Source: Clostridia bacterium (lineage in GTDB: Bacteria; Bacillota; Clostridia; UBA1212; UBA1255). From it: 64,000 nucleotides of DNA. The stretch's first letter is position 1. Every line of letters begins with the position of its first letter. The translations under genes and the position numbers were made by a program. The notes beneath the pieces were generated by a model, which saw only the letters and a list, made by a program, of their open reading frames with translations, made no database searches and was not told the origin of the DNA. Shown here one piece after another: positions 2,362 through 44,897 of the stretch. The stretch spans positions 1,584 to 65,583 of the forward strand of contig JAFWQX010000066.1 in NCBI GenBank assembly GCA_017508875.1, read 5' to 3'.

Positions 2362-2375
2362 CGGAGGGATAATTA

Positions 2376-5075: not shown

Positions 5076-6272
5076 ATGGCTAAAAACACTACTCGATCCG
5101 AACGGGCCGGAATTATTGTCCGGGCTATTACGTGCGCAGTGCTTGCTGCGATAATGCTGCTGTCGCTTGCGACAGGGTGTAAGAACGGGACAGACGGCAA
5201 CGGAACTGTCATTGACCGCCCCACGGAAGTATTGACGACGTCACCGCAGCCGCCGGAAACGACGCCGGACGCGACTCCGACACCTGCTCCGACCGAACTC
5301 CCCGAAGAATTATTTGTTGACAACGTTTATCCGCTTTCGGAGAACATTAACAGCTTTAAGGTGTACGGCAGGCACGAAGTGAAAGAAAAAGGCGTTACTT
5401 GCGACTGGTCAGGCAGCGGCTTTGCGTTCCGGGCCGCGTTCGAAGGAGACGTGTACCTCGAAACGACCGTTCCCGGAGAATGCTACCTGACCGTGTTCCT
5501 CGACGGCGAGCGCCAGACGGACGTAATAAAAGCGAGTAAAAACACGCTGCTTCTGAAGGACGTACCCAGAGGCAGCCACCTCGTCGAAGTGTTCCGCCAG
5601 TCGGAGATCAGGCAATGCCTCTTAATGCTTAAAACCGTGAAAATGCACGGAACGCTCCTCGAACGCCCCGCTGATAATCAACTGTTTTTTGAGTTTGTAG
5701 GCGACAGTATAACTTCCGGGTACGGGACAAATGCTAAAGCTGACGCGGGCACTAACACCGACGCGACGATGGGGTATCCTTTCCTTCTGTCGAGGTCAAT
5801 GAACGCGGACCACAGCATCGTTTCCGTTACCGGTATCGGTATGGTCAAGGGTTACGTCAACGAAACCATGCCTGACGTTTATAAGCTGCTTGACCGCTAC
5901 AGGTCCGCGAAGACGGTGTTCGAGCCGGTTCGGGTGCCAAATGCCGTGATCGTTAATCTGGGCACGAACGATGCCACTATGAGTTCGGACCCTGCTAAAT
6001 ATATCGATGCAGTGAAGGCGCTGATCGGTGAGATCAGATCGTTCTACGGCAATGACGTGCCCGTGGTCTGGGTGTATAATTCCATGCGCTCGGATCACAG
6101 CAGCCATACGCTTAAGGCGCTTTCGGAGCTGGGCGGCGAGGCGGCAAAGCTCTATTCGTTCAAGATGGAGATGGATTCGTCTTCGTTCGGTCATCCTTCG
6201 GCCAACGCGCATAAGATGGACGCCGAGGCGCTGAAGGCATTTATTGAGACGCTGCCGGGTATCGTTCCTTGA
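5076..6272 (+). CDS. Lipoprotein SGNH/GDSL-family hydrolase with Pro/Thr-rich linker
   Basis: Signal peptide + lipobox LATGC; linker TPDATPTPAPTELPEE; GDSL block FVGDSITSGYG; C-terminal SGNH-like region. Confidence 0.7.
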   Translation: MAKNTTRSERAGIIVRAITCAVLAAIMLLSLATGCKNGTDGNGTVIDRPTEVLTTSPQPPETTPDATPTPAPTELPEELFVDNVYPLSENINSFKVYGRHEVKEKGVTCDWSGSGFAFRAAFEGDVYLETTVPGECYLTVFLDGERQTDVIKASKNTLLLKDVPRGSHLVEVFRQSEIRQCLLMLKTVKMHGTLLERPADNQLFFEFVGDSITSGYGTNAKADAGTNTDATMGYPFLLSRSMNADHSIVSVTGIGMVKGYVNETMPDVYKLLDRYRSAKTVFEPVRVPNAVIVNLGTNDATMSSDPAKYIDAVKALIGEIRSFYGNDVPVVWVYNSMRSDHSSHTLKALSELGGEAAKLYSFKMEMDSSSFGHPSANAHKMDAEALKAFIETLPGIVP

Positions 6273-6297
6273 CACCCGACCAAGATTATTATATAAT
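6269..6297 (+). promoter_or_regulatory. Promoter for tRNA-Gln: TTGACA -17- TATAAT
   Basis: TTGACA 6269-6274, TATAAT 6292-6297, tRNA begins 6310. Confidence 0.55.
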
Positions 6298-6309
6298 CCG
6301 CCTAGCCGT

Positions 6310-6381
6310 TGGGGTGTAGCCAAGCGGTAAGGCACCAGACTTTGACTCTGGCATTCGCAAGTCCGAATCTTGCCATCCCAG
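6310..6381 (+). tRNA. tRNA-Gln (anticodon TTG)
   Basis: Manual fold: acceptor TGGGGTG/CATCCCA (U1-A72 as in bacterial tRNA-Gln), D arm GCCAAGCGGTAAGGC, anticodon stem CCAGA/TCTGG with loop CTTTGAC, T arm GCAAG-TCCGAAT-CTTGC, discriminator G; CCA not encoded. Confidence 0.8.
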
Positions 6382-6478
6382 TCAAATAGCCATCGTTACA
6401 AAAGCGGTGGCTATAATTTTTAAAAAGCAGTCTGATCGGAAGATCGGTCTGTATCGTCGCAAAAGCTGCGGGGCGTGG

Positions 6479-7291
6479 ATGATGAGCGAGATTTATTTCG
6501 ATTTCAAAAAAGAACCGGATTTTACAGGAATACTGATCTGCACCGATTTTGACGGAACACTGTACAGCCACGGGATCGCCCCCGCGAACGTCCCTGCGAT
6601 CGACTATTTCATGAAGCGCGGCGGTAAATTTACGCTGTGCTCGGGGCGCGACGGAAGACTGCTGAACGGCGGAAATCTGCCTTTTACGCCTAATGCCCCC
6701 GCGGCGTGTATGAACGGCGGCATTATCTACGATTTTCAGAAAGACGCGATCTTAACGCGCAATCCCATGGCGGATAACTATTACGAGCTCCTGCAGGATC
6801 TGATAGACGGAATGGAACTCAGATGCGCGGATATTGTCTCCGAAAACCTGCGTATCGGATTTAACACGGCCGATCCAGACGATTTCGCACGTGCGCGGGC
6901 TCAGATAAGTTCACCTGTGTACAAGCTTGTCGTCTATAAGGCTGAACCCTCTGACGACTGGGTCCCGGAAGCCGCAAAAAGAATATGTTCAGGCCGCGCT
7001 AACGTACTTTCCAATTCACGCAACTGCTTCGAGCTCAACGCTCCGGGGATCGATAAGGCGTACGGCGCACGCACCGTAAAAGAATATACAGGGTCAAAAA
7101 TACTCATAACCGTCGGAGATTGCGACGGTGACATGTCAATGTTCCGGATCGCCGACGACAGTTTTGCGGTGGGCAACGCGATCCCGGAGCTTAAAGCTAT
7201 TTCCGGCCATGTCGCCGAAGCGACTGTTTCGGAAGGCGCATTCCCGGAGATCATCCACGCCATTGCCTGCCTTTACGGAGGAGCAGAATGA
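6479..7291 (+). CDS. HAD-superfamily hydrolase (Cof-like, HAD-IIB)
   Basis: Motif I DFDGTLY near N-terminus, later GDCDGDMSMF motif (HAD motif IV-like); start uncertain (GTG 6407 or ATG 6479/6482). Confidence 0.65.
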   Translation: MMSEIYFDFKKEPDFTGILICTDFDGTLYSHGIAPANVPAIDYFMKRGGKFTLCSGRDGRLLNGGNLPFTPNAPAACMNGGIIYDFQKDAILTRNPMADNYYELLQDLIDGMELRCADIVSENLRIGFNTADPDDFARARAQISSPVYKLVVYKAEPSDDWVPEAAKRICSGRANVLSNSRNCFELNAPGIDKAYGARTVKEYTGSKILITVGDCDGDMSMFRIADDSFAVGNAIPELKAISGHVAEATVSEGAFPEIIHAIACLYGGAE

Positions 7292-10152
7292 AGACCGCAC
7301 GCCTCGATAAAGCGGAAAAACCGTTAAGAGCGCTCCTGCTGATTGCCGCATTCATAATACCGGCGCTCACGGCATTGTCCGTATTCGCGGCGTACGGGAT
7401 GTATCCGTTCGGGGAAAAATCCGTTCTCATAATGGACATGTCCGGACAATACGTGGAATTTCTTGCCGGACTTAAGCATCTGCGTTCTCCCGCGGATATG
7501 TATTTCAACTGGGGGAAGGTGCTTGGCGGTAATTATTCGGGCGTCTTTGCGTATTACGCCTCGAGCCCGCTGTCGTTTCTGACCGTTTTCTGTCCGGACC
7601 AGTACATGGACGCCGGGCTGCTGTTCCTTACGGTGCTGAAAATAGGTCTCTGCGGGCTTACGATGGCGCTCTTCCTCACTAAATTTCTTATGCGTACGTT
7701 TAACCGTTCCGTGCGTTTCGCGCTGGGAGAGGCGTTTTCGCGCAACACTATAAGGGCGGGGATCGTGCTTCTGTTCTCAACGCTTTACGCTCTTTGCTCC
7801 TATAACTGCGTGTACTCGATGTGCGTGATGTGGCTCGACGGCGTGATAATGCTGCCGCTCATACTGTACTTTACGGAGGTACTGATCGACCGCGGAAAAA
7901 TCGCGGGACTCGTTGCCTGCTTCACGTATATTTTTATTGCGAACTATTACGTCGCGTTCATGTGCGGCGTGTTTACGGTGATATATTACGTATTTTACTG
8001 CATTGACCGCAGAAAAACCGACGCGGAACTGGCGCTGGACAAAAGTACGGCCGTACGGTTCCACGCAAACCGCTTCCTGAAATTCGCGCTTTCGGCAATA
8101 CTTGCCGCATGTCTCGCTGCCTTCATCCTGCTTCCCGCATTCTTCTCGCTGTTCGAAGGAAAAATCGGCGGCGCAAACAGCTCGTACCCGTCCGACTGGA
8201 ATTATTCTTTTACCCAATTCATCCGCAAACTGTTCATAGGCGAGTACGACGCCATTACCAACAGCGGTGCGCCTTTCTTCTACGGAGGCGCTGCGGTGCT
8301 GCTCGCAGTCCCGCTTTTCTTCATGAACCGGAGGATAAAGGTCCGAACACGTATTTCGGCAGCCGCTATACTCGCGTTCCTGCTCTTTTCTACAGCGCTT
8401 TCTCCGTTGGACAATATGTGGCACATTTTCCAGCATCCGAACTGGTTCCCGTACCGCTGGTCGTTCATTCTCACGTTTTTTGCAGTATTCATCGCTTTCC
8501 GCGCCGTGCTTGCGTTTCGCTTCGAGAGTCCGGGGGCAATACTTTTTTCGTCTTGCTTGATCGGTGCGCTTTGTCACGCGGCGGTCAATATGTCTGAGGA
8601 TAAACCTGGCGCTGATCACGTTTACAGACAATTTGCGCTGGCCCTGATCTTCGCCGCACTGATCATCGCATTGTCGCTGCTGATGAAATTTTTCCGGCTG
8701 AAAAAGCGAAACACTTACGCGCTTAAGACCGCGGCAGGATTATTCTGTGCGCTTGCATTGTCCGTGACCGTAATTGTCACGGCAGTCAGGGAGGAAACGT
8801 ACCACTGGAAGCCGCTGCTCGAAGGACTTGACCGCGCGCACCACTACGAGACCGCCGAATCATATATAACGTACAAAGAAGAAATGTCGGAGGCGCTCGG
8901 GATCGTTGACAAAGACAGAAACGCGCTCGGACTTTCGAAGTATTCCGGCATAAGTCAGAACTTCTCGCGCAGCTACAACGAAGCTGTCGGGTTCGGGTAC
9001 AGGTCGGTCGCTCACTACAGTTCCGCGTTTAACAGGAGCGTCAATGATTTTCTCGGGAAATTAGGCTATTCCTGCGCTTATCTCTGGAACCTCGATTTCG
9101 GGGCAACGGCAGTGACGGACAGTATTTTCGGCCTTAAATATTATCTGAGCGGGAACGGTATCCTCGCGTGGGACGCGGAAGAACTTGTTGAAAGAGGCAG
9201 TCCGGCGCTCCCGTACGAATACGAAAAAATCGGAAGCGTTGACGGCGCGTTCGGAATAGATATCTACAGAAATCCGTACGCCGCTGACGGACCGTTCCTG
9301 CTGGGAGCCGATCCGTCCGGTTTCAGCCTTACGAACAATTATTTTGAAAACCAGAACGCGCTTATCAAACTCTGTTCGGGCCTTGAAGGAGACGTCTTCA
9401 AGCCGCTCGACAGGGGATACGTTACACTCACGCTTCCGGCGCTTCTCACCGGAAATAACGGCGAGGACGGTAATTACAGAGGCAGCGGCGCCGAACTTGA
9501 ATACACCGTGATATTGCCCGAAGGCGGGGTCCTTTACGCATTCTTCAAAGATTACGGGCACGAAGGTAATCCCAGTCTGAAGCTGCGCTCGGATGAGACG
9601 GATATAGATCCGATCAGGCTTTTCCGCGGAGAGACCAGCTGCATCCAGCGCCTCGGAAGTGCGCGCCCGGGCGGAGGCGTAGCGTTTACGATCGAGATAG
9701 CCAGATCGCTTAATACCAACGGCTTTATGTTTTACGTGCTGGATGAAGATATGCTTAAACAGCACATGGATGCCATCAAGGCGGCATCTCTTAACATAAC
9801 AAAGTTCGGGACGGGATATATTAAAGGGTCGTTCACGGACGGGAGCGCGGCTGCGAACGGCGGGTATCTGCTGCTTCCGGCAGCGTACGATCAGGGCTGG
9901 ACGGTAAAGGCAGACGGCGGGAAAGTTTCGACAAGTTCGCTCGATGGCGGATTGCTGGTCGCAAAGATCCCCGCCGGGACAAAAAACGTGGAGCTCAGGT
10001 ACAGGGCTAAGGGGCAGGTCGCAGGTACGTTGCTGTCAATATCCGCATTCGTTTTCTGCGCGTCTGCCATTGCCGCGACGCTGATCAAAAAACGCCGTAA
10101 GCGCCTGGACGCCGGGGCCTTAAACGATCCCGAACCGGTTGATTTTAAGTGA
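7288..10152 (+). CDS. YfhO-family polytopic membrane protein (envelope glycosylation-associated)
   Basis: 954 aa, N-terminal region MYPFGEKSVLIMDMSGQYVEFLAG characteristic of YfhO, >10 predicted TM helices followed by large extracytoplasmic C-terminal domain; RBS GGAGGAG. Confidence 0.75.
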   Translation: MKTARLDKAEKPLRALLLIAAFIIPALTALSVFAAYGMYPFGEKSVLIMDMSGQYVEFLAGLKHLRSPADMYFNWGKVLGGNYSGVFAYYASSPLSFLTVFCPDQYMDAGLLFLTVLKIGLCGLTMALFLTKFLMRTFNRSVRFALGEAFSRNTIRAGIVLLFSTLYALCSYNCVYSMCVMWLDGVIMLPLILYFTEVLIDRGKIAGLVACFTYIFIANYYVAFMCGVFTVIYYVFYCIDRRKTDAELALDKSTAVRFHANRFLKFALSAILAACLAAFILLPAFFSLFEGKIGGANSSYPSDWNYSFTQFIRKLFIGEYDAITNSGAPFFYGGAAVLLAVPLFFMNRRIKVRTRISAAAILAFLLFSTALSPLDNMWHIFQHPNWFPYRWSFILTFFAVFIAFRAVLAFRFESPGAILFSSCLIGALCHAAVNMSEDKPGADHVYRQFALALIFAALIIALSLLMKFFRLKKRNTYALKTAAGLFCALALSVTVIVTAVREETYHWKPLLEGLDRAHHYETAESYITYKEEMSEALGIVDKDRNALGLSKYSGISQNFSRSYNEAVGFGYRSVAHYSSAFNRSVNDFLGKLGYSCAYLWNLDFGATAVTDSIFGLKYYLSGNGILAWDAEELVERGSPALPYEYEKIGSVDGAFGIDIYRNPYAADGPFLLGADPSGFSLTNNYFENQNALIKLCSGLEGDVFKPLDRGYVTLTLPALLTGNNGEDGNYRGSGAELEYTVILPEGGVLYAFFKDYGHEGNPSLKLRSDETDIDPIRLFRGETSCIQRLGSARPGGGVAFTIEIARSLNTNGFMFYVLDEDMLKQHMDAIKAASLNITKFGTGYIKGSFTDGSAAANGGYLLLPAAYDQGWTVKADGGKVSTSSLDGGLLVAKIPAGTKNVELRYRAKGQVAGTLLSISAFVFCASAIAATLIKKRRKRLDAGALNDPEPVDFK

Positions 10153-10834: not shown

Positions 10835-11070
10835 GTTCAGAATTCAGAGTTAAGAGTTAAGAGGCGAACCGAGTGATGGCACGAATTTTGGGTCTCATGC
10901 GATCCCTTCATTAATTCGCATTTCGGTCAAACAAAATTCTTAGCCATTCACTCGGCTTCGCAGAAGTTCAAATGAAGTTTAGGAAGTTAAGAGTTATGAG
11001 TTCAGAGTTATGAGTTAAGAGTTAAGAGTTATGAGTTCAGAGTTAAGAGTCATTCACTCGGCTTCGCTGG
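10826..11070. repeat. MITE-like intergenic repeat element (copy A): ~105-bp core with terminal inverted repeats, flanked on both sides by GAGTTMA heptamer microsatellites
   Basis: Core gaggcgaaccgagtgatggc...gccattcactcggcttcgc nearly identical to 44727-44830; heptamers gagttca/gagttaa/gagttat x4 and x9. Confidence 0.65.
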
Positions 11071-23679: not shown

Positions 23680-23707
23680 AACCCGGGCGGTCTCCTGGTT
23701 TCCTGGA

Positions 23708-23815
23708 GGGTTTTCTTAAGGGCTTTCTTAAGGGCTTTTTTAAGGGGCTTCTCAAGGGCTTTCTCAAGTGGCTTCTCAAGGGCTTTCTCAAGTGGCTTCT
23801 CAAGGGCTTTCTCAA
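23708..23815. repeat. Nine tandem 12-bp repeats (GGGCTTTCTCAA / GTGGCTTCTCAA variants)
   Basis: Read directly; unit resembles the last 12 coding nt of sufB/D (GGTTTCCTGAAG). Confidence 0.8.
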
Positions 23816-23970
23816 GGAAAACTTAACAGTCTTTCAGCGACAGACTCTCCCGCTCTCGCTCCCCAGTCTCTCTTCGGGCTCTCCGCGGGCTCTGCGGGAA
23901 AAATTACTGTTGCATTTTATTTTTTGTTGTAGTATAATATGCTTCGCTGCTTGAAAAGGCGGCTATCTAT

Positions 23971-24046
<76 letters not shown>

Positions 24047-24049
24047 AAA

Positions 24050-24085
24050 AAGCAAGGCATCCGTCAGGGTGCCTTGTTTTTTTGG
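24050..24085 (+). terminator. Rho-independent terminator after tRNA-fMet
   Basis: gcaaggcatccgtcagggtgccttg + TTTTTTTGG. Confidence 0.7.
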
Positions 24086-24113
24086 TGGGGAAGAAAAGTC
24101 TGGCAGGGAAGGT

Positions 24114-24236
24114 CCGGGTTATGAGCACGACGAGCGGGCACCGCAAAGGGCGCGAAGCGATAACCCGGAGGTCGTTGGTTCAAATCCTTCCCCCGCAGCC
24201 ATACCACTTTAGCACTTTAATGTGGTAAATTTTCAC
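24114..24236. repeat. Degenerate tRNA-fMet remnant: inverted copy of anticodon arm (24114-24135) followed by direct copy of tRNA 3' half (24160-24197) and conserved tail; att-like scar
   Basis: ataacccggaggtcgttggttcaaatccttcccccgca duplicated exactly from 24003-24044; tail cataccactttagcactttaatgtggtaaattttcac recurs at 26425, 27875(partial), 30851. Confidence 0.65.
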
Positions 24237-24337
24237 TTTAGTGCTTGTGTTTTTTCTTTTTTAATCAAAAAGGTATTGACATCCTATATTTCATTTAATA
24301 TAATGGTTTCACCGATTCGGTGAAAGGATGGATTTCA

Positions 24338-25402
24338 ATGAAACAAGGCTTGACTGATTTGCAGTACGAACAACTTGCCAAAGAAGCTTTTACAAAGCTA
24401 ATGAGCAGTATCCCTTTCGTATCAGATATTGAAATAATAAAAACTGGGTTGCAACGCGGGTTTGGTGACTTTCGCGCTGTCGTTCACTTTACGGATTCAA
24501 AAGCAGTTCAGGATTTTTACGTAGAGGTTAAATCCAACGGTGAGAAGCGGTACGCTAATATCTTTTGCATGGAAGCAAAACAGCACATCGATGATTTATG
24601 CTACTTGTTTATGGCACCTTATGTATCGGAATCAACATCTGAATATCTGCGTGAAAACAATCTGAGTTTTTTGGATTTAAGTGGTAATTGTTTTATTTTG
24701 ACAAGACGAATGATAATTCATGTTAGCGGAAAACCGAATCAGTTCATTGAGAAACGAGAAAAGAAGAACTATTTATCAAAGTCGTCTTCGGCAGCTTCTG
24801 CGGTTATCAGAACGATGCTGAATGATCCGGATAAATGGTGGAAAGTCAAAGAATTGTCTGAGGTTTCGAAGAAAGCTATCGGAACTGTTTCGAACGTAAA
24901 AGTTTTTCTGACAGAAAAAGATTGGATTGACGACCATATTTATCAATTCCGTTTAAAAAATTTCAAGGAGCTACTTTATGTATGGAGCAAAGACTATCAT
25001 AAAAAAAAATCAATAACAAAGGAATATTATTCTTTGTTTTCTTTGCCAGAACTTGAGACAGAAATATCAAAATGGAGCAAAACGCATGACCGCAATGCCG
25101 TACTTGGCGGTTTTTCCGCCGCGGCAAGATATGTGCCAACTGTTCGGTATAACAAGATCAACGTTTATGTTGCAGAAGAAGGATTGTACGAATTTGAAAA
25201 AGATCTTGCTTTGACGCCGGTTAGTTCGGGAGGAAATATTGTTGTGACGATCCCTCATGACGATACTCCATGTATGTTCAATCAGGAAATCAATGATTCT
25301 ATAGTTTCATCACCGGCACAAACCGTTATTGATTTACTTGGAATGCCAAACCGCGGAGAAGAGGCCGCCGAAGCGATCATATCTAAATACTATAGGAGGT
25401 AG
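24338..25402 (+). CDS. Hypothetical protein, possible AbiEi-like partner of downstream nucleotidyltransferase
   Basis: Low-GC gene directly upstream (5-bp gap) of AbiEii-like gene; no recognizable motif; assignment by gene context only. Confidence 0.35.
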   Translation: MKQGLTDLQYEQLAKEAFTKLMSSIPFVSDIEIIKTGLQRGFGDFRAVVHFTDSKAVQDFYVEVKSNGEKRYANIFCMEAKQHIDDLCYLFMAPYVSESTSEYLRENNLSFLDLSGNCFILTRRMIIHVSGKPNQFIEKREKKNYLSKSSSAASAVIRTMLNDPDKWWKVKELSEVSKKAIGTVSNVKVFLTEKDWIDDHIYQFRLKNFKELLYVWSKDYHKKKSITKEYYSLFSLPELETEISKWSKTHDRNAVLGGFSAAARYVPTVRYNKINVYVAEEGLYEFEKDLALTPVSSGGNIVVTIPHDDTPCMFNQEINDSIVSSPAQTVIDLLGMPNRGEEAAEAIISKYYRR

Positions 25403-25407
25403 TCAAA

Positions 25408-26247
25408 ATGGATAAGAATGATAATTTGAAAAAATCGACAGATTATTCTCAAGGTCAAAAAGATGCCGCCTATTCCGTACTTGGCGAAATTGTTAACTTA
25501 CTTGCCGATTATTCTGACAATTTACGTATTATCGGAGGATGGGTTCCAACTCTTTTGTATCCGGACAAAGAGCATATCGGATCAATAGACGTTGACGTTT
25601 TGCTGAATCAGCAAAAGATCCAAAAAGCCCAAGGGTATGAGAATATCAGACGAATTCTGACCAGAAACGGTTATACAAAACATCCTGATAAGTACTTTTC
25701 TTTCGTTAAAACCGTGAGTATTCAAGGGGTTGACTATTCTGTCGATGTTGACTTCCTTTCAGGGAAATACGGAGGAGACGGAGGAAATATCAGTAAACAC
25801 GTAGACGGAATCAAAACTCTTCCTGCTACCGCGGGGAACTTTGCGTTTGAGTTTCAGCCGCAAAAAGTCAAAATCGAGTATCAACGTCCGGACGGTGCAA
25901 AAGATTTTGGAAACGTCAGCGTGATTTCCGTCATTCCGTATATAGTTATGAAAACCGACGCACTTGGCAGAGGAAAGCCAAAAGATGCATACGATATTTA
26001 CTGTACAATCACATCATACCCCGGTGGTATCATAGCCCTGGCTAAAGAATTTCTGCCATACTCAAAAAAGAAGCTCATCCAAGAAATGTGCGAAAAACTC
26101 AAAGAAAAATTTGCATCGCCGGATCATGCCGGCCCAACCGATATAGTAGCTTTTTTGGACATTTCAGATGAAGATGAGATCCTGAGAATAAAGCAGGATG
26201 CGTATCAGCGCGTCAAATATCTGATAGATATTTTAGACAAAGAGTAA
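25408..26247 (+). CDS. Nucleotidyltransferase of AbiEii/AbiGii (DUF1814) toxin family
   Basis: RIIGGWVPTLLYPDKEHIGSIDVDVLL = GS-x(n)-D-x-D minimal NTase motif in AbiEii-like context; ~280 aa; strong RBS AGGAGG. Confidence 0.55.
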   Translation: MDKNDNLKKSTDYSQGQKDAAYSVLGEIVNLLADYSDNLRIIGGWVPTLLYPDKEHIGSIDVDVLLNQQKIQKAQGYENIRRILTRNGYTKHPDKYFSFVKTVSIQGVDYSVDVDFLSGKYGGDGGNISKHVDGIKTLPATAGNFAFEFQPQKVKIEYQRPDGAKDFGNVSVISVIPYIVMKTDALGRGKPKDAYDIYCTITSYPGGIIALAKEFLPYSKKKLIQEMCEKLKEKFASPDHAGPTDIVAFLDISDEDEILRIKQDAYQRVKYLIDILDKE

Positions 26248-26339
26248 TCAAAACAGAAAAGTGAACTCCTCCCTTGCGATACCATTGTACCGCGAAGGAG
26301 GAGTTCTGTAAAATGTGCGATTTCAGGCTTGGTCGGTCA

Positions 26340-26470
26340 GCAGATAAGCGGATGAAAATGCGCGCAGGGGCCGTAAATACTTGATTTTATTGTGGTATGG
26401 TCAAATCCGTTATCTCCACTCGGACCATACCGCTTTAGTGCTTTAAAGTGATGAATTTTCAGTTGGGATA
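26340..26470. repeat. Island cassette-boundary repeat, copy 1 (mini-ORF MRAGAVNT 26358-26384 + hairpin 26394-26431 + conserved tail)
   Basis: Aligns with copies at 27790-27900 and 30768-30895 and with tRNA-fMet 3' end/flank. Confidence 0.65.
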
Positions 26471-26579
26471 GAAGACAATGCAGACCTGAATCTTTACTTT
26501 TTTGTAAATTGGAGCGAATCATCTTTACTTTTCCGCTTTCTTGTGTTATAATAAGTAAAGATGAAAGTGAGGTCACACT

Positions 26580-27494
26580 ATGTTTTCATATAAAGGGTTG
26601 GAACAAAAACTGAAAGAGCGGGGAATTGGACGTTCTGATCTGACAAAACTGTTAGGGCTTTCTTCGCGGACGGTCGCAAAGGTAGGCAAAGGCGAGAAGC
26701 TTTCGCGCGGGGTTATGGAAAAACTTGCAGATTTCTTTGGGTGTTCTCCCGAAGAATTGTGCAGGGAGGTTTCGGACAATCCAATTCTGCAAATGCTGCG
26801 GGAAGAAAAAGAGGCGAAAATTTCCGGAGGGCTTTATCACGAGCTGCAGGTGCGTATGACCTACAACTCCAACCACATCGAAGGAAGTAGGCTCACGGAA
26901 GATCAGACACGATTGATTTTCGAAACGAACACGCTGAACGTCGGAGACGGCGTTCCGGTGGACGACATTTTGGAGACGGTGCATCATTTCCGCGCCATTG
27001 ACTACGTCATCGATTCGGCGGATCAAGTTCTTACCGAAGACATCATCAAGGAACTGCATTATATCCTCAAGCACGATACCAAGGATTCAACGCTTGATTG
27101 GTTCGCGGTAGGTGATTATAAAAAACGTCCGAACGTGGTTGGCGGTCGGGAGACGGCAAAACCGAAGGATGTACCGGTGCAGATGAAAAAGTTGCTTGAC
27201 GAATATAACGCGAAGCAGGATATAACGGTCAACGATATCATCGCTTTCCACGCCGAATTTGAAAAGATCCATCCTTTCCAGGATGGCAACGGTCGCGTCG
27301 GCAGACTTATCGCGCTGAAAGAATGTCTGCGGTTCTGTATCGTGCCGTTCCTCATCGAAGACAGCAAAAAGATGTTTTACTATAGAGGCCTGTCAGAGTG
27401 GGATAACGAAAAAGGCTGGCTCACCGACACCTGTCTTGATGGTCAGGATACATTCAGAAAATTGCTTGAAATGTTTGAAATAGAACTGGACTGA
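26580..27494 (+). CDS. Fic-family protein with N-terminal XRE-type HTH
   Basis: Fic motif HPFQDGNGRVGR; N-terminal LGLSSRTVAKVGKGEK HTH. Confidence 0.85.
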   Translation: MFSYKGLEQKLKERGIGRSDLTKLLGLSSRTVAKVGKGEKLSRGVMEKLADFFGCSPEELCREVSDNPILQMLREEKEAKISGGLYHELQVRMTYNSNHIEGSRLTEDQTRLIFETNTLNVGDGVPVDDILETVHHFRAIDYVIDSADQVLTEDIIKELHYILKHDTKDSTLDWFAVGDYKKRPNVVGGRETAKPKDVPVQMKKLLDEYNAKQDITVNDIIAFHAEFEKIHPFQDGNGRVGRLIALKECLRFCIVPFLIEDSKKMFYYRGLSEWDNEKGWLTDTCLDGQDTFRKLLEMFEIELD

Positions 27495-27789
27495 GAAGGC
27501 AATGTTTAGTCAAAAACAAAAAAGTTAAACCCAAAAACAATCAATTCTATATATTAGTAACAATTTGAAAGCAAGCAGGAAAAACAGCAACATTAGTGTT
27601 ATCAAACTTTTATGTAATGATGCAAATTATATTTTGAGGGAAAGAGCAAAAGGCCTTAGGAAACTTTAAGCGATAACGTAAATCTAAAAGAATGGCAGCC
27701 CTATGATTGAGAGCTGTCATTCTTTATTCTATCTTAGTATACTGTTTTCAAAACGTTTGGCATGGTGGTTCCTCTTATGTTTTTGTTAA

Positions 27790-27900
27790 TGATCCATGGA
27801 GGAAAAATGCGCGCAGGTGCCGTAAACACTTAGTTTTATTTGTGGTTTGGTCAAATCCGTTATCTCCACTCAGACCAAATCTTTGTAGCCACAAATCCAG
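27790..27900. repeat. Island cassette-boundary repeat, copy 2 (mini-ORF 27807-27833, hairpin 27844-27881)
   Basis: Same element; hairpin stem carries compensatory changes relative to copy 1 (tat/ata -> ttt/aaa). Confidence 0.65.
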
Positions 27901-27931
27901 TGCTTGGGTATTTGATCAAAGCCTTGAAAAC

Positions 27932-29080
27932 CTAATCCTCGTCATACGTTATTTCATAATGCAGTTGGAACGCTCCGGCAAGGTATCTGCGGCGGAGGTC
28001 GCTGTTTATCCATTCGATATTCTTTTGAAAAACGCTGCTGCCGCCGTTCCATTCGACCAGCTCGTCATGCCGCGGATCTTTCTTGTCTTGGAGAATACGG
28101 ATCAACTCTGAGAATCCTCCCGGGCCGCCGCAGTCCTCCGGTGGTGCGTCGCCTTTCAACTCCGTACATACCGGGGCGGGTAGATCAGCGTCTTCAATTA
28201 TCTCGACAAGCCGAATCTCGTGAGTCCACCCGTCGCCGAAATCATATTCGTAAGAAATGCGGTCGGTCTTAGAAAAGACCTCCTCAAGCGTGATCTCCCG
28301 CTCGTCAACGATTTCGCACCCGCGTGCGCCGTATATGTCATCATCTTCCGGAGACGGTATTCTTGCTAACTGTATCGGACGGCCACTTTTTGACCGCTTC
28401 AGGATAAACTCATGCAAGTGGTAATCTTTCCACAAAAACAAATTCTGAATGATATCGTGCAGATAGAATAGCGAAAAGTTCATAGGTACCGTAACGCATC
28501 TGAGGCAAGGCGTTTCAAGCTCAAGTGATATGTCAAAAACGCCGGCACGGGTACTGTAGAGCTTGCCATATTTTTCTTTAAGCGCACGTTCTTGCTCTTC
28601 GTAGGTTGCGTAGACGTCCTTTTTGTCGGAGGTGAACCTGAGATCATCATTGATCATAGGAAGCAGAACCGTTTGAAAACGATCGTCGGGTTCAAAACAG
28701 TTTTCGTAGCGTTCAATTCTTTGGCAGAACTTGTTTAATCTTGCAACGGAAGACCTATCGCCTGTTTTACACAAGCTTGCCGGGAAACAGCAATCGGCGA
28801 TATAGCGGTCGATCACCTCTTGGGAGATGCTTTCCGATGCGAGCATATTCCGTAATCCTGCCTCCAACAGTTCTTGCAACTTCTTTTTATCGCCTGCCGT
28901 GATCCCGTACAGCAGGAAACCGCATCCCGTCGAATCATTGGCGATCACAATGCACTTTCTGCGATTCATCACGATAAGATTTGCGGAAAAAGCAAAAAGT
29001 GGATCAATTCCTTTTGTGGCCTGTTCCGGAGATATGCCTAAATAATCAATCAGTTTTTTTGTGCATCCGATTTGTATCAT
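27932..29080 (-). CDS. pRiA4b ORF-3-like family protein (PRiA4_ORF3 domain) with N-terminal uncharacterized domain
   Basis: YEYDFGDGWTHEIRLVEI matches YxYDFGDxWxH signature; RBS AGAAAGGAAAGG. Confidence 0.65.
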   Translation of the reverse strand: MIQIGCTKKLIDYLGISPEQATKGIDPLFAFSANLIVMNRRKCIVIANDSTGCGFLLYGITAGDKKKLQELLEAGLRNMLASESISQEVIDRYIADCCFPASLCKTGDRSSVARLNKFCQRIERYENCFEPDDRFQTVLLPMINDDLRFTSDKKDVYATYEEQERALKEKYGKLYSTRAGVFDISLELETPCLRCVTVPMNFSLFYLHDIIQNLFLWKDYHLHEFILKRSKSGRPIQLARIPSPEDDDIYGARGCEIVDEREITLEEVFSKTDRISYEYDFGDGWTHEIRLVEIIEDADLPAPVCTELKGDAPPEDCGGPGGFSELIRILQDKKDPRHDELVEWNGGSSVFQKNIEWINSDLRRRYLAGAFQLHYEITYDED

Positions 29081-29118
29081 AATTGCCTTTCCTTTCTAAG
29101 ACTTAACAAAATCTCAGA

Positions 29119-30630
29119 TCAATGTTCAACTCTGTAAAACTTTTGATACTTGCTCTTAGGTTTCTCCGGTATCGTCATCGCGAGTTTGCCCGCGACGACA
29201 AGCGGTCTCAGGTATTTTGTAACAACGTAATACGGCGTTTGGATGTTCAGCATTGAGGCGATCTCTTCCTTGCTTTTCGGCTCTGTGCAAAAAGTAAGTA
29301 TCCGTTCTTCGACGGTGACGGATGGACTGCCGGGAACGATCGACGTTTCCTTTTTTGAAAACAGCGTCGCCTTGAAAATGCCTCTGTAGTTTTCAAACAG
29401 CGGCTCGGGAAGCCCGGCTTTCCTCATTGCTTCACGAATCGTCGGAATACCGGAAAAACGGTTTTCGGTATCGATCATGACTTCGAGATTGCTTGCGATA
29501 AACGGGTTTCTTGTGTCTCCCGGGACTTTTCCGAGATCGTTGATCGTCAGGCGTCCGTAAAGCCCGCCAGGATTTTCTACCACAAGTCTGTCGCGGAAAA
29601 GGATCACTCTGACAGGGGAGCCCTCGGTATGAACGCTGTAATCTCGGTGGATCAGAGCGTTCAGGATCAATTCGCGGACGGCGACGAGCGGATATTCCGG
29701 CTTATCGGTCCTGCGACCGTTTTCATCCACAACAACGGCGGTTTTTATGTTTCGCCTTACAAAGTTCATTGCGCCTTCCAGCATCTCCGGTATCGTTCCG
29801 TCAAAGCGCTTGTTGTCGATAAAGCGTTCTCCGGACGCTCCGAGGTCGCCAATCTCATATCCGTCTACGACCATAGCGGTGATACCGAGCTGGGGGAAAA
29901 ACGCTTGGGGATAATCGCCGACAAGCATCAGCCCGGCGACGGTAGGCTTGCCGTTATCCGTGAGCCCTTGAAGTTTCATGATTCTGAGATCATCCTGATT
30001 TGCGAGCTGCGGCTTTTCCGTTTTTAGCTTTGCAAAATACAAACTCAGTTTTTCGCGGCTGAGATCATCCGTTTCCGCGCGGTCCACGATTCGCAGCTCG
30101 TCGCGGATCTTCTTTTTATAGACTTCGTAACTGTAGATTTCATATTCGGTCATCGGCATATCCGCGTCGCCTACGCGAACATAAGAGCCGCGGATCCTGC
30201 CGGCTGGCTTATAGAAGCAAGGTTTATTTTCGGGCTCGCACTCCGGTATTTCGGCGCTTACGACCACTTTTCCTTCGTATTCGGCAACCGTAAAAAACGG
30301 GCGAACGACCGGTTCCATCTGCTCCGCGGCGTTTTTGACCTGGACCTGCAGATCCTGCGCGTCATATACGCCCGTAACCTCATACCCAGCCTTTTCATCA
30401 ACGCCGAAAATGATCGTACCGCCGTCATTCTGGTTGGAAAAGCTTGACAGAGTATCGTAAAGCTTTTTAGACGTGCCGCCCAACGCCTTTTTGACTTCCA
30501 CATACTGTTTTTCGCATTTCTGACGCTTCAGAGCGTCTATCAGTTCTATCAGATCTTTCTCTGTCAATGCTGTTGCTCCTTTCGTTATCACAATCTTATT
30601 ATAGTGTTTTTCAAAACGATTGTCAAACAT
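29119..30630 (-). CDS. Schlafen-like AlbA_2 DNA-binding domain + HATPase_c_4 (RecG-C-terminal-like) putative regulator
   Basis: N-terminal AlbA_2-like block (IVITKGATALTEKDLIELID..., FGVDEKAGYEVTGV), C-terminal NALIHRDYS GHKL-like motif. Confidence 0.7.
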   Translation of the reverse strand: MFDNRFEKHYNKIVITKGATALTEKDLIELIDALKRQKCEKQYVEVKKALGGTSKKLYDTLSSFSNQNDGGTIIFGVDEKAGYEVTGVYDAQDLQVQVKNAAEQMEPVVRPFFTVAEYEGKVVVSAEIPECEPENKPCFYKPAGRIRGSYVRVGDADMPMTEYEIYSYEVYKKKIRDELRIVDRAETDDLSREKLSLYFAKLKTEKPQLANQDDLRIMKLQGLTDNGKPTVAGLMLVGDYPQAFFPQLGITAMVVDGYEIGDLGASGERFIDNKRFDGTIPEMLEGAMNFVRRNIKTAVVVDENGRRTDKPEYPLVAVRELILNALIHRDYSVHTEGSPVRVILFRDRLVVENPGGLYGRLTINDLGKVPGDTRNPFIASNLEVMIDTENRFSGIPTIREAMRKAGLPEPLFENYRGIFKATLFSKKETSIVPGSPSVTVEERILTFCTEPKSKEEIASMLNIQTPYYVVTKYLRPLVVAGKLAMTIPEKPKSKYQKFYRVEH

Positions 30631-30694
30631 TTTTCAAAACAAAATCACGTTTTTCAAAACGAATTTTGATATTTTAACAATTGTGTTTTGAAAA
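30631..30694. promoter_or_regulatory. Operator-like TTTTCAAAAC decamer repeats (two direct upstream + one inside first codons + one inverted) upstream of AlbA_2/HATPase gene
   Basis: TTTTCAAAAC at 30608, 30631, 30651; GTTTTGAAAA at 30685. Confidence 0.4.
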
Positions 30695-30767
30695 ATGCGG
30701 CTTTTGTCAAATTGCGGAAGTGTTTCAGTGCCGCTTTTCGACAAAAGCCGTTGTTTTTATTGTCTTA

Positions 30768-30895
30768 TGATCCTCGGAGGAAAAATGCGTGCAGGTGCCG
30801 TAAACACTTGATTTTGTTGGGATTTGGTCAAATCCGTTATCTCCACTCAGACCATACTACCTTAGCGCTGTAAAGTGATGAATTTTTACTTTCGG
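30768..30895. repeat. Island cassette-boundary repeat, copy 3 (mini-ORF 30785-30811, weaker hairpin, conserved tail)
   Basis: Alignment with copies 1 and 2. Confidence 0.6.
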
Positions 30896-31307
30896 AGAGG
30901 TATTTAACAATCGTTATAATCGACAGAACAATGAACATTGTCAAAAACTTGTCGAAAAGTTGCGTCGTAAATGACGTAACTTTTTGATATTATGCTTTGA
31001 CGTAGGCGTACTATAATGTTATAATATCGAAAAGTAGCGTCGGCCCAGACGATATTGTGAGGTATAGATATGATAAAAAGAGATTTGTATTTGAACCGCA
31101 TCATAATTATGATGATAACGGTATTTATCATGTGAATCTTATTGATTTTCTTTTGGGAAAAGTGGAATTGTTTTGAAAACAAGCAAGTCTTGCGCGACCG
31201 TTCAAAGCGCGATCAAACGCCTGACTTAACTCTGATCGATCAAACAAAACGGGTCAAATAAAACCGGATAACGAACCAATATAAAAAATTCGGGGAGAAT
31301 AATTGAT

Positions 31308-31901
31308 ATGAAAAAGACCGAACTCGTTGAACGCTCAAAAATGTATTTGAAATTACTTATTAACGGGATACATCCTGTAACAGGGGAGCAGATCCCGACA
31401 GATTCTGCCTTATTGGGGGATAGAGTTAAAAAATGTTTTAGCTTTATCAGCGGGATCCTTGATGAATACATTGAATTAACCGGCAAAGTTGAAAAGCTCG
31501 AGAAGGAAAAGGAAGCTAATACTGTTATTGTTATGAAAAAGCAGCCATTTGCAATTTCACACGAACAATGCCAGGACATCAAGCTTTCAAAAGAACCAAT
31601 ATCGATGTACTCACTTGTGAGAAATATCAACTCAGTAATCAATACAGAATCAATGGAAAAAATGACTTCAACCGTTATCAACAAGTGGTTATTAAACAGA
31701 GGATTTATAACGGCGTCAAAAGTTCCGACAACTGTGAACAAAACTGTATTCAGCCCGTCGGAACTTGCGGCAAAAATAGGAATAAAAACCGAATCTGTTA
31801 TTAATAAGGCTACCGGCGAAATTAATCCGCAGATCAAATTCAGCGAAAGCGCTCAACTGTTTATAATTGAAAACATAGAAGAAATATCCGGATGCGTTTG
31901 A
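31308..31901 (+). CDS. Hypothetical protein (low GC, island-associated)
   Basis: ORF of 197 aa with RBS; preceded by TTGACG-17-TATAAT promoter at ~31036-31064; no recognizable motif. Confidence 0.4.
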   Translation: MKKTELVERSKMYLKLLINGIHPVTGEQIPTDSALLGDRVKKCFSFISGILDEYIELTGKVEKLEKEKEANTVIVMKKQPFAISHEQCQDIKLSKEPISMYSLVRNINSVINTESMEKMTSTVINKWLLNRGFITASKVPTTVNKTVFSPSELAAKIGIKTESVINKATGEINPQIKFSESAQLFIIENIEEISGCV

Positions 31902-43636: not shown

Positions 43637-44710
43637 ATGAGCAAAAAAAGGATTATATGTACGATTATTATTGCCGCCGTACTCACTGCCGCTGCGTGCC
43701 TGACGGCCTGCAGTACTTCGGCGCCCGAGCCGCAGAAAACGGATAAACCCGCTGCGACCGCGACAGAAATTATTGGCAACGCGACGAAGGCGCCCGATTC
43801 CGAAGCGACTGAGTTGATCACGACTGCTCCGACTGACGAACCTGTAATAACCCCCACGGACGCTCCGACTCCGGCTCCTACCGAAGCACCGCTTCCCGAA
43901 CCCGGAACGATGGTCTATTACGAGGACTTTTCTTCATACGGAAACGTCAGCAAAAACGATGAAGTAGCTAAAACGCTCGGCTGGAAGCTCCTGACCGTAG
44001 AAGCTGACGGAGCACCGAGCGATCTTACAGCGACGCTTGCGATCAAAGACGGAAAGCTTGAAGTGACGAACTTTAACGCTGACGGGGACAGCGACGGAAA
44101 AGACGGATATCTTATGATGCTTGACGACGCGTATATGGACAAGGTGCTTCGCGCGGGTGAATATACCGTCGAGTATGACGTTACGTACAACGACGCGGCT
44201 AATTACAAGCGCTACGTCAACGTTGTTACTGAATATAACAGCGAAGGGTTTAATTCGTTCCATTTCAGAATAGGCGGTTACGGCAACAATCAGCTTTATT
44301 ATCAGGGAACGTGGTTCAAATACGAGGAAAACACCGAGAGAAACTTATATGCCGCAAGGAAGGGTAACAACGAGATCGGGCAGACTATCGCGTTTAAGCT
44401 TCGCGGAATAGAGGGGAAAATAGAGGATAACAACGCTATTCCCAACTTTAAAGGTGTTCCGGTCACGATACGCGTCGTACGGTCGAACGGGTATGCGTCG
44501 GTTTATATGAAGACCGCGGAAATGAATGATTTTATTCAGGTGAGTGAAACTACCGAAACTTCCGAAGCGTTTAATACGGGCAAGTTGCTGAAGGGCAAGG
44601 CGGTCTGTTTTAAGGTCGGCGGAAAGATCAATGCTTCGGTGGATCGCATTGCTATCTGGACGGGCAGCGGAGAAATGCCTGCGGATCATACGGTGACGTA
44701 TGTGCCTTAA
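43637..44710 (+). CDS. Lipoprotein with Pro/Thr/Ala-rich linker, uncharacterized domain
   Basis: Signal peptide + lipobox LTACS; TDEPVITPTDAPTPAPTEAPLPEP linker; RBS GGAAGGG. Confidence 0.6.
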   Translation: MSKKRIICTIIIAAVLTAAACLTACSTSAPEPQKTDKPAATATEIIGNATKAPDSEATELITTAPTDEPVITPTDAPTPAPTEAPLPEPGTMVYYEDFSSYGNVSKNDEVAKTLGWKLLTVEADGAPSDLTATLAIKDGKLEVTNFNADGDSDGKDGYLMMLDDAYMDKVLRAGEYTVEYDVTYNDAANYKRYVNVVTEYNSEGFNSFHFRIGGYGNNQLYYQGTWFKYEENTERNLYAARKGNNEIGQTIAFKLRGIEGKIEDNNAIPNFKGVPVTIRVVRSNGYASVYMKTAEMNDFIQVSETTETSEAFNTGKLLKGKAVCFKVGGKINASVDRIAIWTGSGEMPADHTVTYVP

Positions 44711-44897
44711 GAGTTAAGAGTTCAGAGGCGAACCGAGTGATGGCACGAATTTTGGGTCTCATGCGTTCCCTTCATTAATTCGCATTTCGGTCAAACAAAA
44801 TTCTTAGCCATTCACTCGGCTTCGCAGAAGTTTAAGTGGAGTTTAGTGAGTTCAGAGTTAAGAGTTAAGAGTTCAGAGTTCAGAGTTAATAGTTATC
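44708..44897. repeat. MITE-like intergenic repeat element (copy B) with flanking GAGTTMA heptamer microsatellites
   Basis: Core 44727-44830 ~95% identical to 10861-10965. Confidence 0.65.

Follow-up and report, generated by a model that had tools for sequence, protein, structure and literature searches.

A probable mobile cassette with a putatively self-repressed Schlafen-GHKL ATPase gene and a separable pRiA4 passenger gene in a Clostridia bacterium

Do a Schlafen gene and a pRiA4 gene that lie next to each other on a contig of a Clostridia bacterium form a dedicated system, or do they simply travel together? The question arises from a stretch of 64,000 nucleotides (the window), for which an earlier note described two minus-strand genes 38 bp apart, bounded by island repeats and preceded by four copies of a 10-bp motif, one of them inverted. 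The note read these genes as an undescribed two-gene system under a palindromic operator. The layout itself was borne out by the ORF calls, by island repeats at 27789-27888 and 30767-30891, and by the positions of the motif. The explanation that accounts best for the data, and that we consider probable, is one small mobile cassette with one transcript and two separable genes, a self-repressed Schlafen gene and a promiscuous pRiA4 passenger.

The first gene was called as an ORF at 29119-30630 on the minus strand, with 503 amino acids from ATG 30630. Pfam matches were found to SLFN_AlbA_2 (PF04326, E 1.9e-15) and HATPase_c_4 (PF13749, E 1.4e-20), and residues 449-498 of the 503 match the Fic-like_C winged helix (E 3.7e-7). 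The motifs CExQxxExK, SSFSNQ, GGxIxFGxDE, REhhLNAhhHRDY and ENPGGLYG are kept in 19 homologues; in the window protein they comprise the nuclease motif C-E-K-Q-Y-V-E-V-K, the stretch SSFSNQ...GGTIIFGVDE and the GHKL ATP-binding motifs RELILNALIHRDY and ENPGGLYG. The nuclease and ATPase motifs agree with the Ex4(E/D)xK, SAFAN and GHKL E/N residues of active Schlafens (PMC13056530; bioRxiv 10.64898/2026.05.29.728809). With all three domains matched, the predicted protein is a member of the published class of Schlafen proteins with a GHKL ATPase and an HTH. The start at ATG 30630 was rejected because the -35 box of the single strong promoter is found downstream of this codon and because the ATG codons of the homologues align with TTG 30567. 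A Shine-Dalgarno sequence (GAAAGGAG, 30576-30583, minus strand) is located 8 nt before this TTG and is invariant in the homologous loci L001, L002 and L004. The ATG of the homologues and the ribosome binding site point to TTG 30567 as the most likely start, so that the gene would occupy 29119-30567 and encode an AlbA_2, HATPase_c_4 and C-terminal winged-helix protein of 482 amino acids. With this start all four motif copies would be promoter DNA, and the earlier description of one copy as overlapping the first codons holds only for ATG 30630.

The second gene of the predicted transcript (27932-29080, minus strand) encodes 382 amino acids and matches DUF6933 (E 7e-34) and PRiA4_ORF3 (E 3e-45) in Pfam; both the PF07929 domain and the MM3350 fold are present. 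The DUF6933 domain has the RNase H-like catalytic-core (integrase-like) fold of the DDE transposase / retroviral integrase superfamily. A D,D,E/D triad was not found, as no acidic residue within residues 1-175 is conserved in at least 90% of 73 family members. The conserved positions in these 73 members are T7, K8, K9, A33, R40, K42, G59, Y93, N116, C119 and N144. Within an N-terminal subset of 20 sequences, E83 never varies and D96 is at least 90% conserved, which still gives no D,D,E triad. The fusion of DUF6933 to PRiA4_ORF3 is almost confined to Bacillota among the family sequences found, and compared with the pRiA4b ORF-3 / MM3350 family (PF07929; PDB 2I1S) it is DUF6933 that is added at the N-terminus. 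When the PDB was searched by sequence, no relative of characterised function came up for the Schlafen or the pRiA4 protein.

The PADLOC search proposed in the earlier note returned a match for each protein. Residues 42-428 of the Schlafen protein match the pAgo model (E 3e-18) in the part that represents the N-terminal SLFN-pAgo module, and residues 1-124 of the pRiA4 protein match candidate PDC-S63 (E 9e-12) over model positions 1-136 of 190. The PDC-S63 models have about 190-200 positions and match the DUF6933 part only, whereas the window protein is fused to PRiA4_ORF3. PDC-S63 is a computational candidate for which no validation was found in the literature.

The 38-nt spacer between the two genes (29081-29118, minus strand) carries a ribosome binding site (GAAAGGAAAGG) for the pRiA4 gene, and no promoter or terminator was predicted in it by promoter and terminator scans. 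It is homologous in L001 and L002 and is replaced in L005 and L155. A terminator-like hairpin with a T-run (27696-27716, minus strand; consensus scan) lies downstream of both the pRiA4 gene and the left-hand island repeat, and is a possible end of a bicistronic transcript.

The edges of the unit are sharp. The left-hand repeat, rep2 (27789-27888, core 27789-27877, plus strand), is followed directly after its last bases by the start of the cassette. The repeat rep3 (30767-30891, core 30767-30855, plus strand) forms the right-hand, promoter-side edge, and a third copy of this direct repeat of about 90-110 nt is found at 26340-26464. Homology with L001, L005 and L143 begins at 27871-27876, and homology with L086, L089 and L153 stops at 30854-30855. 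Judged from these junctions, the region 27878-30855 is a discrete small mobile cassette. In the related locus L001 this same unit is inserted into a glutathione peroxidase gene, which it splits between ...IPCNQ and FGGQAPGTDEEIQ; at an empty site the gene would be uninterrupted, with the sequence ...TGCAACCAGTTCGG....

Does the cassette encode one system? In a dedicated two-gene defence system, a self-repressed operon, the Schlafen/GHKL protein would be the effector and the DUF6933-PRiA4 protein the sensor or regulator, or the reverse. Such a system would suit the constant spacing of 37-38 nt with intact reading frames at four to five loci in different surroundings, the defence links of both families (the PDC-S63 and SLFN-pAgo module matches), and the AbiE-like (AbiEi/AbiEii) and Fic (PDC-S04) genes that the island also holds. 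However, the pair was found only in the window, L001, L002/L004 and L143, and all of these are one nucleotide-homologous block, 83-95% identical, and therefore one evolutionary event. The earlier note had suggested examining the co-occurrence of the two families, and in independent lineages none was found beyond this single block. Relatives that are equally close have swapped partners. Behind Schlafen genes of 91-94% identity lies either a SWIM-finger gene or nothing related, and pRiA4 genes that are 67-90% identical sit behind unrelated AAA_14-DUF4143 ATPase genes; that a 90% identical pRiA4 protein does so disfavours specific protein-protein co-adaptation. The pRiA4 relatives at 77%, 70%, 63%, 62%, 61%, 59% and less than 45% identity have unrelated neighbours, no Schlafen gene occurs in about 17 more distant pRiA4 contexts, and the family sizes are far apart (at least 7,700 matches for Schlafen versus 559 for pRiA4). 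The proposal of an undescribed two-gene system is thus improbable. As the neighbourhoods indicate, the Schlafen-pRiA4 pairing is no conserved system and represents one inherited block within a cassette of about 3 kb, and the pRiA4 gene is a lineage-specific passenger in the Schlafen cassette with no fixed partner.

One aspect of the pRiA4 gene still speaks for a functional connection. In its clade (at least 67% identity) the gene occurs in three independent contexts, each time following an ATPase gene at a distance of 31-38 nt, and each of these ATPase genes has a promoter of its own that bears operator-like sites. The ATPase genes are the Schlafen gene and two AAA_14-DUF4143 genes that are only 24% identical to each other. 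AAA_14-DUF4143 as the ancestral partner of pRiA4 was rejected on account of this low identity, which suggests independent juxtapositions. The threefold position directly behind an ATPase gene is a hint of more than hitch-hiking.

The repeats upstream of the Schlafen gene surround a promoter that matches the sigma-70/sigma-A consensus at 12 of 12 positions (30598-30626, minus strand) and is conserved in homologous loci. The promoter scan places TTGACA at 30626-30621 and TATAAT at 30603-30598, with a 17-nt spacer. Exact copies of TTTTCAAAAC are located at 30608, 30631 and 30651 on the plus strand and at 30685 on the minus strand. The corresponding putative operators are O1 (GTTTTGAAAA, 30608-30617, minus strand), which lies within the -35/-10 spacer, O2 (30631-30640, minus strand), which ends 4 nt upstream of the -35 box, O3 (30651-30660, minus strand), 20 nt upstream of O2, and O4 (30685-30694, plus strand), which is inverted relative to O1-O3. 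Each site is a near-palindrome of 11-12 bp, GTTTT-GA-AAAAC, and the three direct copies are 20-23 bp apart. Seven exact copies occur in the window against 0.44 expected, a number reached in none of 100 shuffles. An imperfect hairpin with 32-nt arms and T-runs on both strands (inverted repeat I1, 30691-30757) is conserved in L001, L089, L152 and L153. It is likely to be a bidirectional terminator, shielding the promoter against transcription that enters from outside.

The four sites are conserved in L001, L002/L004, L086-L090, L152 and L153, although the intervening DNA has diverged, so the repeats did prove to be kept upstream of homologues. In L001, L002 and L004 the conservation resembles a footprint, in that the motifs, the -35 and -10 boxes and the ribosome binding site are invariant and the spacers are substituted. 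The operator proposed in the earlier note gains from this pattern, since near-palindromic sites that bracket and invade a consensus promoter are held constant, and the sites are best described as putative operators. An array of 3-7 copies of GTTTTGAAAA precedes every Schlafen gene that is at least 80% identical, regardless of whether pRiA4, SWIM or convergent unrelated genes lie downstream, and it accompanies the Schlafen gene in at least six different genomic contexts. These putative operators track the Schlafen gene, not the Schlafen-pRiA4 pair. In the neighbourhoods of homologous loci no other regulator gene is consistently adjacent to the Schlafen gene.

More distant Schlafen clades have other arrays, with a periodicity of about 20-21 bp and a copy in the promoter spacer. 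The array motif is TTTWAGAAAAC in L092, TTGAGTAAAA in L107/L109 and ATTTCACTAA in L146. Winged-helix identity is 84-89% within the clade that shares the window motif, with L090 and L091 as two outliers at 72-77%, and drops to 37-58% in clades whose arrays have a different motif. Variation also affects the putative recognition segment, from IQTPYYVVTKY to IETPAYVVRKY, FSSISYMMSKY and others. The agreement between motif and winged helix is qualitative over about 16 clades, and the repeat statistic is only moderately specific in the control.

Could the repeats instead be sites of a host global regulator, or plain A/T-rich elements that enhance the promoter, and not be bound by the Schlafen protein at all? 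The motif is A/T-rich and loosely resembles the palindromic boxes recognised by CodY and similar global regulators in Firmicutes, and three further exact copies are present elsewhere in the window (20208, 27745 and 31170). Repeated 10-mers are also not rare in front of other genes: at least four near-copies of some 10-mer were counted in 5 of 32 other upstream regions of the window. Of about 16 Schlafen clades only 8 reach this number, and the generalisation to the whole family is therefore moderate. However, the array stays in front of the Schlafen gene across six or more genomic contexts, the motif shifts along with the winged helix, and a copy within the -35/-10 spacer suggests repression and not enhancement. 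As extra operators the copies at 27745 and 20208 were rejected, and they look incidental because L002 and L153 do not preserve the former in their homologous flanks, and the latter overlaps a ribosome binding site and start codon. Taken together, a host regulator or a plain enhancing element is quite unlikely. As a measure, the count of repeated 10-mers is weakly discriminating against control promoters.

A toxin-antitoxin-like pair, with the Schlafen nuclease as toxin, the pRiA4 protein as antitoxin or immunity factor and conditional autoregulation as in type II systems, is very improbable, for although the close spacing, single promoter and palindromic operators, the TA-type cargo of neighbouring cassettes (AbiEi/AbiEii here, HipA in the L153 cassette) and the growth arrest caused by the Schlafen/GHKL protein TrlG in Photorhabdus (bioRxiv 10.1101/2020.06.02.129163) would be in keeping with it, it is the putative toxin that carries the DNA-binding domain, where an antitoxin would be expected to, and the majority of Schlafen homologues, even at 91-94% identity, have no pRiA4 gene. 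The pRiA4 gene in turn is widespread without a Schlafen gene, and with 482 and 382 amino acids the two proteins greatly exceed the size of classical type II toxins and antitoxins.

For a self-repressed Schlafen gene with a passenger, the following course of events may be proposed. The winged helix of the Schlafen protein, assigned as the operator binder by association, would bind the four sites as an oligomer and repress its own promoter. Repression would set a low level of expression both for the nuclease, which is potentially toxic, and for the second gene on its transcript, and the pRiA4 gene, having no promoter of its own, would ride on the Schlafen transcript. If the protein behaves like characterised Schlafens, oligomerisation driven by ATP and some trigger may then release the cleavage of tRNA or RNA. 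We infer that the Schlafen protein may act in repression and as a nuclease and may have some role in defence.

The same three-part architecture is described for pSlfn HisKinase-HTH proteins (Nat Microbiol 2026, PMC13056530) and for the 'Schlatpase' supradomain with a C-terminal HTH (bioRxiv 10.64898/2026.05.29.728809). The window protein has the Ex4ExK and GHKL ATP-binding motifs of the pSlfn class and a Schlafen box that reads SSFSN versus SAFAN, and it lies in a defence-type island. Schlafen proteins with a GHKL domain, with or without the HTH, are reported as the commonest prokaryotic Schlafens, a class that is not known to confer a phenotype. When Schlafens of the HisKinase type were assayed in E. 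coli from their native promoters, they did not protect against phage (PMC13056530), and a defence role for the class is therefore unproven. Neither term searches of PMC13056530 nor the parts of the bioRxiv preprint that were consulted brought up operator arrays in promoters or self-regulation. The conserved, clade-specific arrays in these promoters suggest a testable idea, namely that the C-terminal HTH is a self-repressor that keeps the Schlafen nuclease almost silent. If true, self-repression would explain the negative phage assays and show how such genes could be de-repressed. A false lead is removed as well, in that the Schlafen-pRiA4 pairing appears to be no system, and DUF6933 can now be assigned an integrase-like, triad-less fold within a unit recognised as a discrete mobile cassette.

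Two other proteins invite comparison. In SLFN-pAgo of Runella zeae (RzAgo) the N-terminal Schlafen and GHKL module is homologous to the window protein, and ATP binding drives tetramerisation and tRNA cleavage. The window protein has no Argonaute core, and a 60-residue winged helix takes the place of the guide-dependent sensor. TrlG, from the temperature-restriction locus of Photorhabdus, combines AlbA_2 and HATPase_c_4, arrests growth and belongs to a short regulated operon, a likeness drawn from its description and not from its sequence. Its locus differs in having a separate 79-aa regulator, a histidinol-phosphatase-like partner gene and a proteobacterial host.

How do such cassettes move? 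The order of units in the repeat array is permuted between genomes, with the crossover at a fixed point of the repeat, and the 3' end of a tRNA serves as the anchor of the array. Like integron cassettes and att-flanked tRNA arrays, it holds promoter-carrying TA or defence units between similar repeats of about 90 nt. CIME/ICE accretion and tycheposons are att-flanked accretion arrays at tRNA genes. The array differs from integrons in having no RYYYAAC / GTTRRRY boxes in the island repeat consensus, no stable single-strand hairpin and no nearby integrase. An attC/integron reading was rejected because single-strand DNA folding was no better than in shuffles (z -1.4 to +0.8), and no Pfam recombinase domain was found in the scanned ORFs of about 18.3-39.4 kb, nor any integrase over about 6 kb towards the tRNA and 9 kb in the other direction. 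A structured RNA was rejected as well (no Rfam match at E up to 10, and a consensus fold without compensatory pairs), as were a tRNA or tmRNA gene, with nothing found by ARAGORN or the Rfam tRNA model, and a phage origin, since the 23-nt core has no exact match in viral contigs. It is tentatively suggested that the repeats of about 90 nt may be attachment sites carried by the cassettes themselves, in a gene-cassette system of rumen Clostridia that is distinct from integrons and uses a recombinase encoded elsewhere. Insertion, stacking and reshuffling of promoter-carrying TA or defence units, the Schlafen-pRiA4 unit among them, would take place at the tRNA-Met 3' end as well as at intragenic pseudo-sites resembling '...AACCA'. 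In such cassettes the protein with the integrase fold and the MM3350 domain would recur behind self-regulated ATPase-nuclease genes and possibly be a modular accessory of them. The repeat also contains an 8-codon micro-ORF (MRAGAVNT), which is frameshifted in L002, absent in L155 and shows synonymous-looking changes in several copies. By eye, the 3' part of the repeat alone resembles the T-arm/acceptor end of a tRNA.

The earlier note described two minus-strand genes 38 bp apart, and both ORFs and their spacing were found: the pRiA4 ORF at 27932-29080 (382 aa) and the Schlafen ORF, as first called, at 29119-30630 (503 aa). In Pfam the pRiA4 protein contains DUF6933 (E 7e-34) and PRiA4_ORF3 (E 3e-45), and the Schlafen protein contains SLFN_AlbA_2 (E 2e-15), HATPase_c_4 (E 1e-20) and a Fic-like_C winged helix (E 4e-7). 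A perfect TTGACA-17-TATAAT promoter, the sole 12/12 match in 5 kb, is located on the minus strand at 30626-30598. The ATG at 30630 lies ahead of its -35 box and was rejected as the Schlafen start. A TTG at 30567, 21 codons downstream, has the ribosome-binding sequence GAAAGGAG 8 nt before it, and the homologous loci L001, L002 and L004 have an ATG exactly at its position; the Schlafen product is therefore most likely 482 aa. Apart from this start-codon detail, all the features in the note are present and non-random. The 38-nt gap contains no predicted promoter or terminator, and the pRiA4 gene is preceded by a ribosome-binding site of its own, which suggests that both genes are carried on one bicistronic transcript.

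The best supported reading, which we consider probable, is that of an autonomous gene whose Schlafen-GHKL-HTH product would repress its own promoter, with the pRiA4 gene riding as a passenger on the Schlafen transcript and the two genes packaged together as one cassette. The note had proposed a two-gene module, but outside one lineage the two families were not found paired, the outcome that the note had named as refuting the module. A search from the pRiA4 protein gave 559 relatives, nearly all fused DUF6933 and PRiA4_ORF3, and a Schlafen gene is directly upstream only in the window, L001, L002/L004 and L143 (pRiA4 identities to the window of 85%, 80% and 98%). All pair-bearing loci have a single nucleotide-homologous block in common and thus represent one evolutionary juxtaposition. 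In L005/L163 (90% and 89%) and L155 (67%) the gene 31-38 nt upstream instead encodes an AAA_14-DUF4143 protein, and the ATPases of L005/L163 share only 24% identity with that of L155. Relatives at 77%, 70%, 63%, 62%, 61%, 59%, 44% and 40% identity have unrelated neighbours, as do eleven full-length homologues in reference genomes; among these neighbours are Ntox50, a SEC-C protein, glutaredoxin, MMPL-GNAT, APH, a small HTH, SNF2_assoc (after a distant pRiA4 gene in L161), TetR and GGDEF. The search from the Schlafen side gave more than 7,700 matches. Schlafen genes 94% identical to that of the window (L086/L087) are followed 10 nt downstream by a 554-aa SWIM zinc-finger protein (2815-4479 and 1951-3615, respectively), with no pRiA4 there. 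Downstream of those in L088 (91%) and L091 (83%) lie unrelated genes in convergent orientation, downstream of that in L092 (74%) a GH38 mannosidase and downstream of that in L139 (63%) an AAA_14-DUF4143 gene; the remaining loci have unrelated neighbours. The pairing is not a new system. A true two-gene system is unlikely, but keeps some weight from the three independent occasions on which a pRiA4 gene of this clade came to lie directly behind an ATPase gene.

Self-repression by the Schlafen protein would involve an array of repeats at the promoter. The motif TTTTCAAAAC has 7 copies in the window vs 0.44 expected, and four of these lie within 87 bp (30608-30694), three in the same orientation and one inverted, as had been noted. 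With the start at TTG 30567 all four are promoter DNA, so that none overlaps the first codons as had been claimed. O1 (30608) is inside the -35/-10 spacer, O2 (30631) stops 4 nt short of the -35 box on its upstream side, O3 (30651) is 20 nt further upstream and the inverted O4 (30685) follows after another 34 nt. With its adjoining bases each copy makes a 12-bp near-palindrome, GTTTT-GA-AAAAC. Two extra copies, GTTTTCAAAAC at 27744-27754 and GTTTTGAAAAC at 31169-31180, form perfect palindromes of 11 bp; homologous flanks do not keep the first, and the second, about 130 nt upstream of a 197-aa ORF, could be a real extra site. A hairpin with 32-nt arms and T-runs on both sides (30691-30757) lies between the promoter and the outer island repeat.

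Over the homologous block L001, L002 and L004 are 83-90% identical to the window in nucleotides; substitutions fall between the four motifs, the two promoter hexamers and the ribosome-binding site, which are themselves kept. The other refuting outcome in the note, a lack of the repeats upstream of homologues, did not occur. In a metagenome scan with the Schlafen protein as query (69 loci), an array of 3-7 copies of GTTTTGAAAA precedes every Schlafen gene at least 80% identical, irrespective of downstream content. In more distant clades the arrays differ, and often show a period of about 20-21 bp and one copy in the promoter spacer: TTTWAGAAAAC in L092 (74%), GTTYACTAAA in L093/L139 (about 61-63%), TTGAGTAAAA in L107/L109 (55-56%) and ATTTCACTAA in L146. 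At least four near-copies of some 10-mer were found in 8 of about 16 Schlafen clades, but also in 5 of 32 other upstream regions of the window, which tempers the family-wide claim; the array is firmly established for the GTTTTGAAAA clade and plausibly general across the family. Compared with the window protein, the winged helix is 84-89% identical in four GTTTTGAAAA-clade loci, 72-77% in two more (L090 and L091) and 37-58% in loci outside the clade, and the putative recognition segment varies along with the motif. This association suggests that the Schlafen protein's own winged helix binds the putative operators; that a host regulator binds the repeats is improbable. Of the palindromic self-regulatory operator in the note, the conserved near-palindromic sites at the promoter stand, and the binder is assigned by association. 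Overall its observations hold and its interpretation is half right, in the operator and not in the new system. Where an AAA_14-DUF4143 gene takes the Schlafen gene's place upstream of pRiA4, its promoter follows the same design with repeats of its own, AAATTGCGAT three times in L005 (6540-6640, one inside the spacer of TTGACA-N17-TATAAT) and GCGCAAA three times in L155 (3500-3640).

The nuclease motif C-E-x-Q-x-x-E-x-K (Ex4ExK), the Schlafen box (SSFSNQ), GGxIxFGxDE and the GHKL motifs REhhLNAhhHRDY and ENPGGLYG are kept in 19 Schlafen homologues with identity down to 45%. The Schlafen protein has the architecture of HisKinase-HTH, the second most frequent prokaryotic Schlafen class (19.2%), and no protection was seen with the HisKinase Schlafen fusions tested in E. 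coli (PMC13056530). The Schlafen and GHKL core has been named the "Schlatpase" supradomain, usually found alone or with a C-terminal HTH, in bioRxiv 10.64898/2026.05.29.728809. Operators and self-regulation are not mentioned in the examined parts of that preprint, nor, by term search, in PMC13056530. The protein class is thus known, and the window locus is a new member of it that offers a useful lead on regulation. TrlG, a Photorhabdus Schlafen/GHKL protein, causes growth arrest at 37 C (bioRxiv 10.1101/2020.06.02.129163). That Schlafen and pRiA4 form a toxin-antitoxin pair is very improbable.

The pRiA4 protein model is confident (pLDDT 93.5). Conserved positions in the 73-member family alignment are mainly basic and none is a conserved acidic residue; DUF6933 is thus a predicted integrase-like fold in which the catalytic triad is absent, and it probably binds nucleic acid. 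Plasmids frequently carry PRiA4 domains, often next to IS66 transposases; such domains have also been described as passengers of ISAzba1-type transposons (PMC3942029). This fold and the mobility of the cassette are the more original by-products of the analysis.

The island (23971-31900) is split into units by three direct repeats of about 90-110 nt (26340-26464, 27789-27888 and 30767-30891), the last two bounding the pair as the note had it, and by a junction at a duplicated tRNA-Met 3' end (24160-24240). The order is AbiEi/AbiEii, Fic-HTH, pRiA4 and Schlafen (leftward) and the 197-aa ORF, then core metabolism genes. The Fic-HTH protein is a very strong match to the PADLOC candidate PDC-S04 (E 5e-104). 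In the neighbour cassettes (24320-27494; AbiEi-like, E 3e-9, and HTH-Fic) the AbiEii-like partner is weak (E 0.0055, below the Pfam cut-off). In other loci the repeat also flanks Schlafen, AAA_14 and pRiA4, Fic and HipA units, with such cassettes in L001, L152, L153, L155 and L165. The order of the cassettes varies from genome to genome; in L152 a Fic unit with 96% identity lies on the other side of the Schlafen unit than in the window. Homology with other loci runs from 27871-27876 to 30854-30855, the last repeat-core bases (...CTCRGACCA), and the crossover is always directly after ...CCA; the 3' part of the repeats resembles a tRNA 3' end. The L001 unit (5855-9202, 3.35 kb) consists of repeat core, 96-aa ORF, hairpin, promoter, Schlafen and pRiA4, and interrupts a glutathione peroxidase gene, with ...IPCNQ (TGCAACCA, up to the junction) on one side and GTTCGG... 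(FGGQAPGTDEEIQ) on the other. The insertion is clean and its site resembles the tRNA-Met 3' end (GCAACCA), and thus the "module" is a mobile cassette. The units are discrete and mobile, and the cassettes are a promoter-carrying TA/defence array anchored at tRNA-Met.

The repeats were considered as attC-like sites and rejected, having no stable single-strand fold and no Rfam match, with no recombinase domain nearby among the scanned ORFs. Most copies contain GGAGG, 5 nt and an 8-codon ORF (MRAGAVNT-stop; 26355-26390, 27804-27840 and 30782-30817) with synonymous-looking differences and alternative stop codons; it has a frameshift in L002 and is missing from L155. An inverted copy of the tRNA-Met anticodon arm (24114-24134, in the 23993-24134 region) lies between the tRNA and its duplicated 3' end. 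At 23685-23828, behind a SufBD-like gene, a 12-nt unit (GGCTTTCTCAAG-like) is repeated eight times in tandem. Two copies of an intergenic element with tandem heptamers GAGTTAA / GAGTTCA (17 near-matches vs 3 expected) occur at 10843-11060, with heptamers on both sides of a GGCGAACCGAGTGA...TCACTCGGCTTCGC inverted repeat, and at 44707-44895; they precede a 249-aa gene in one case and a MatE transporter gene in the other.
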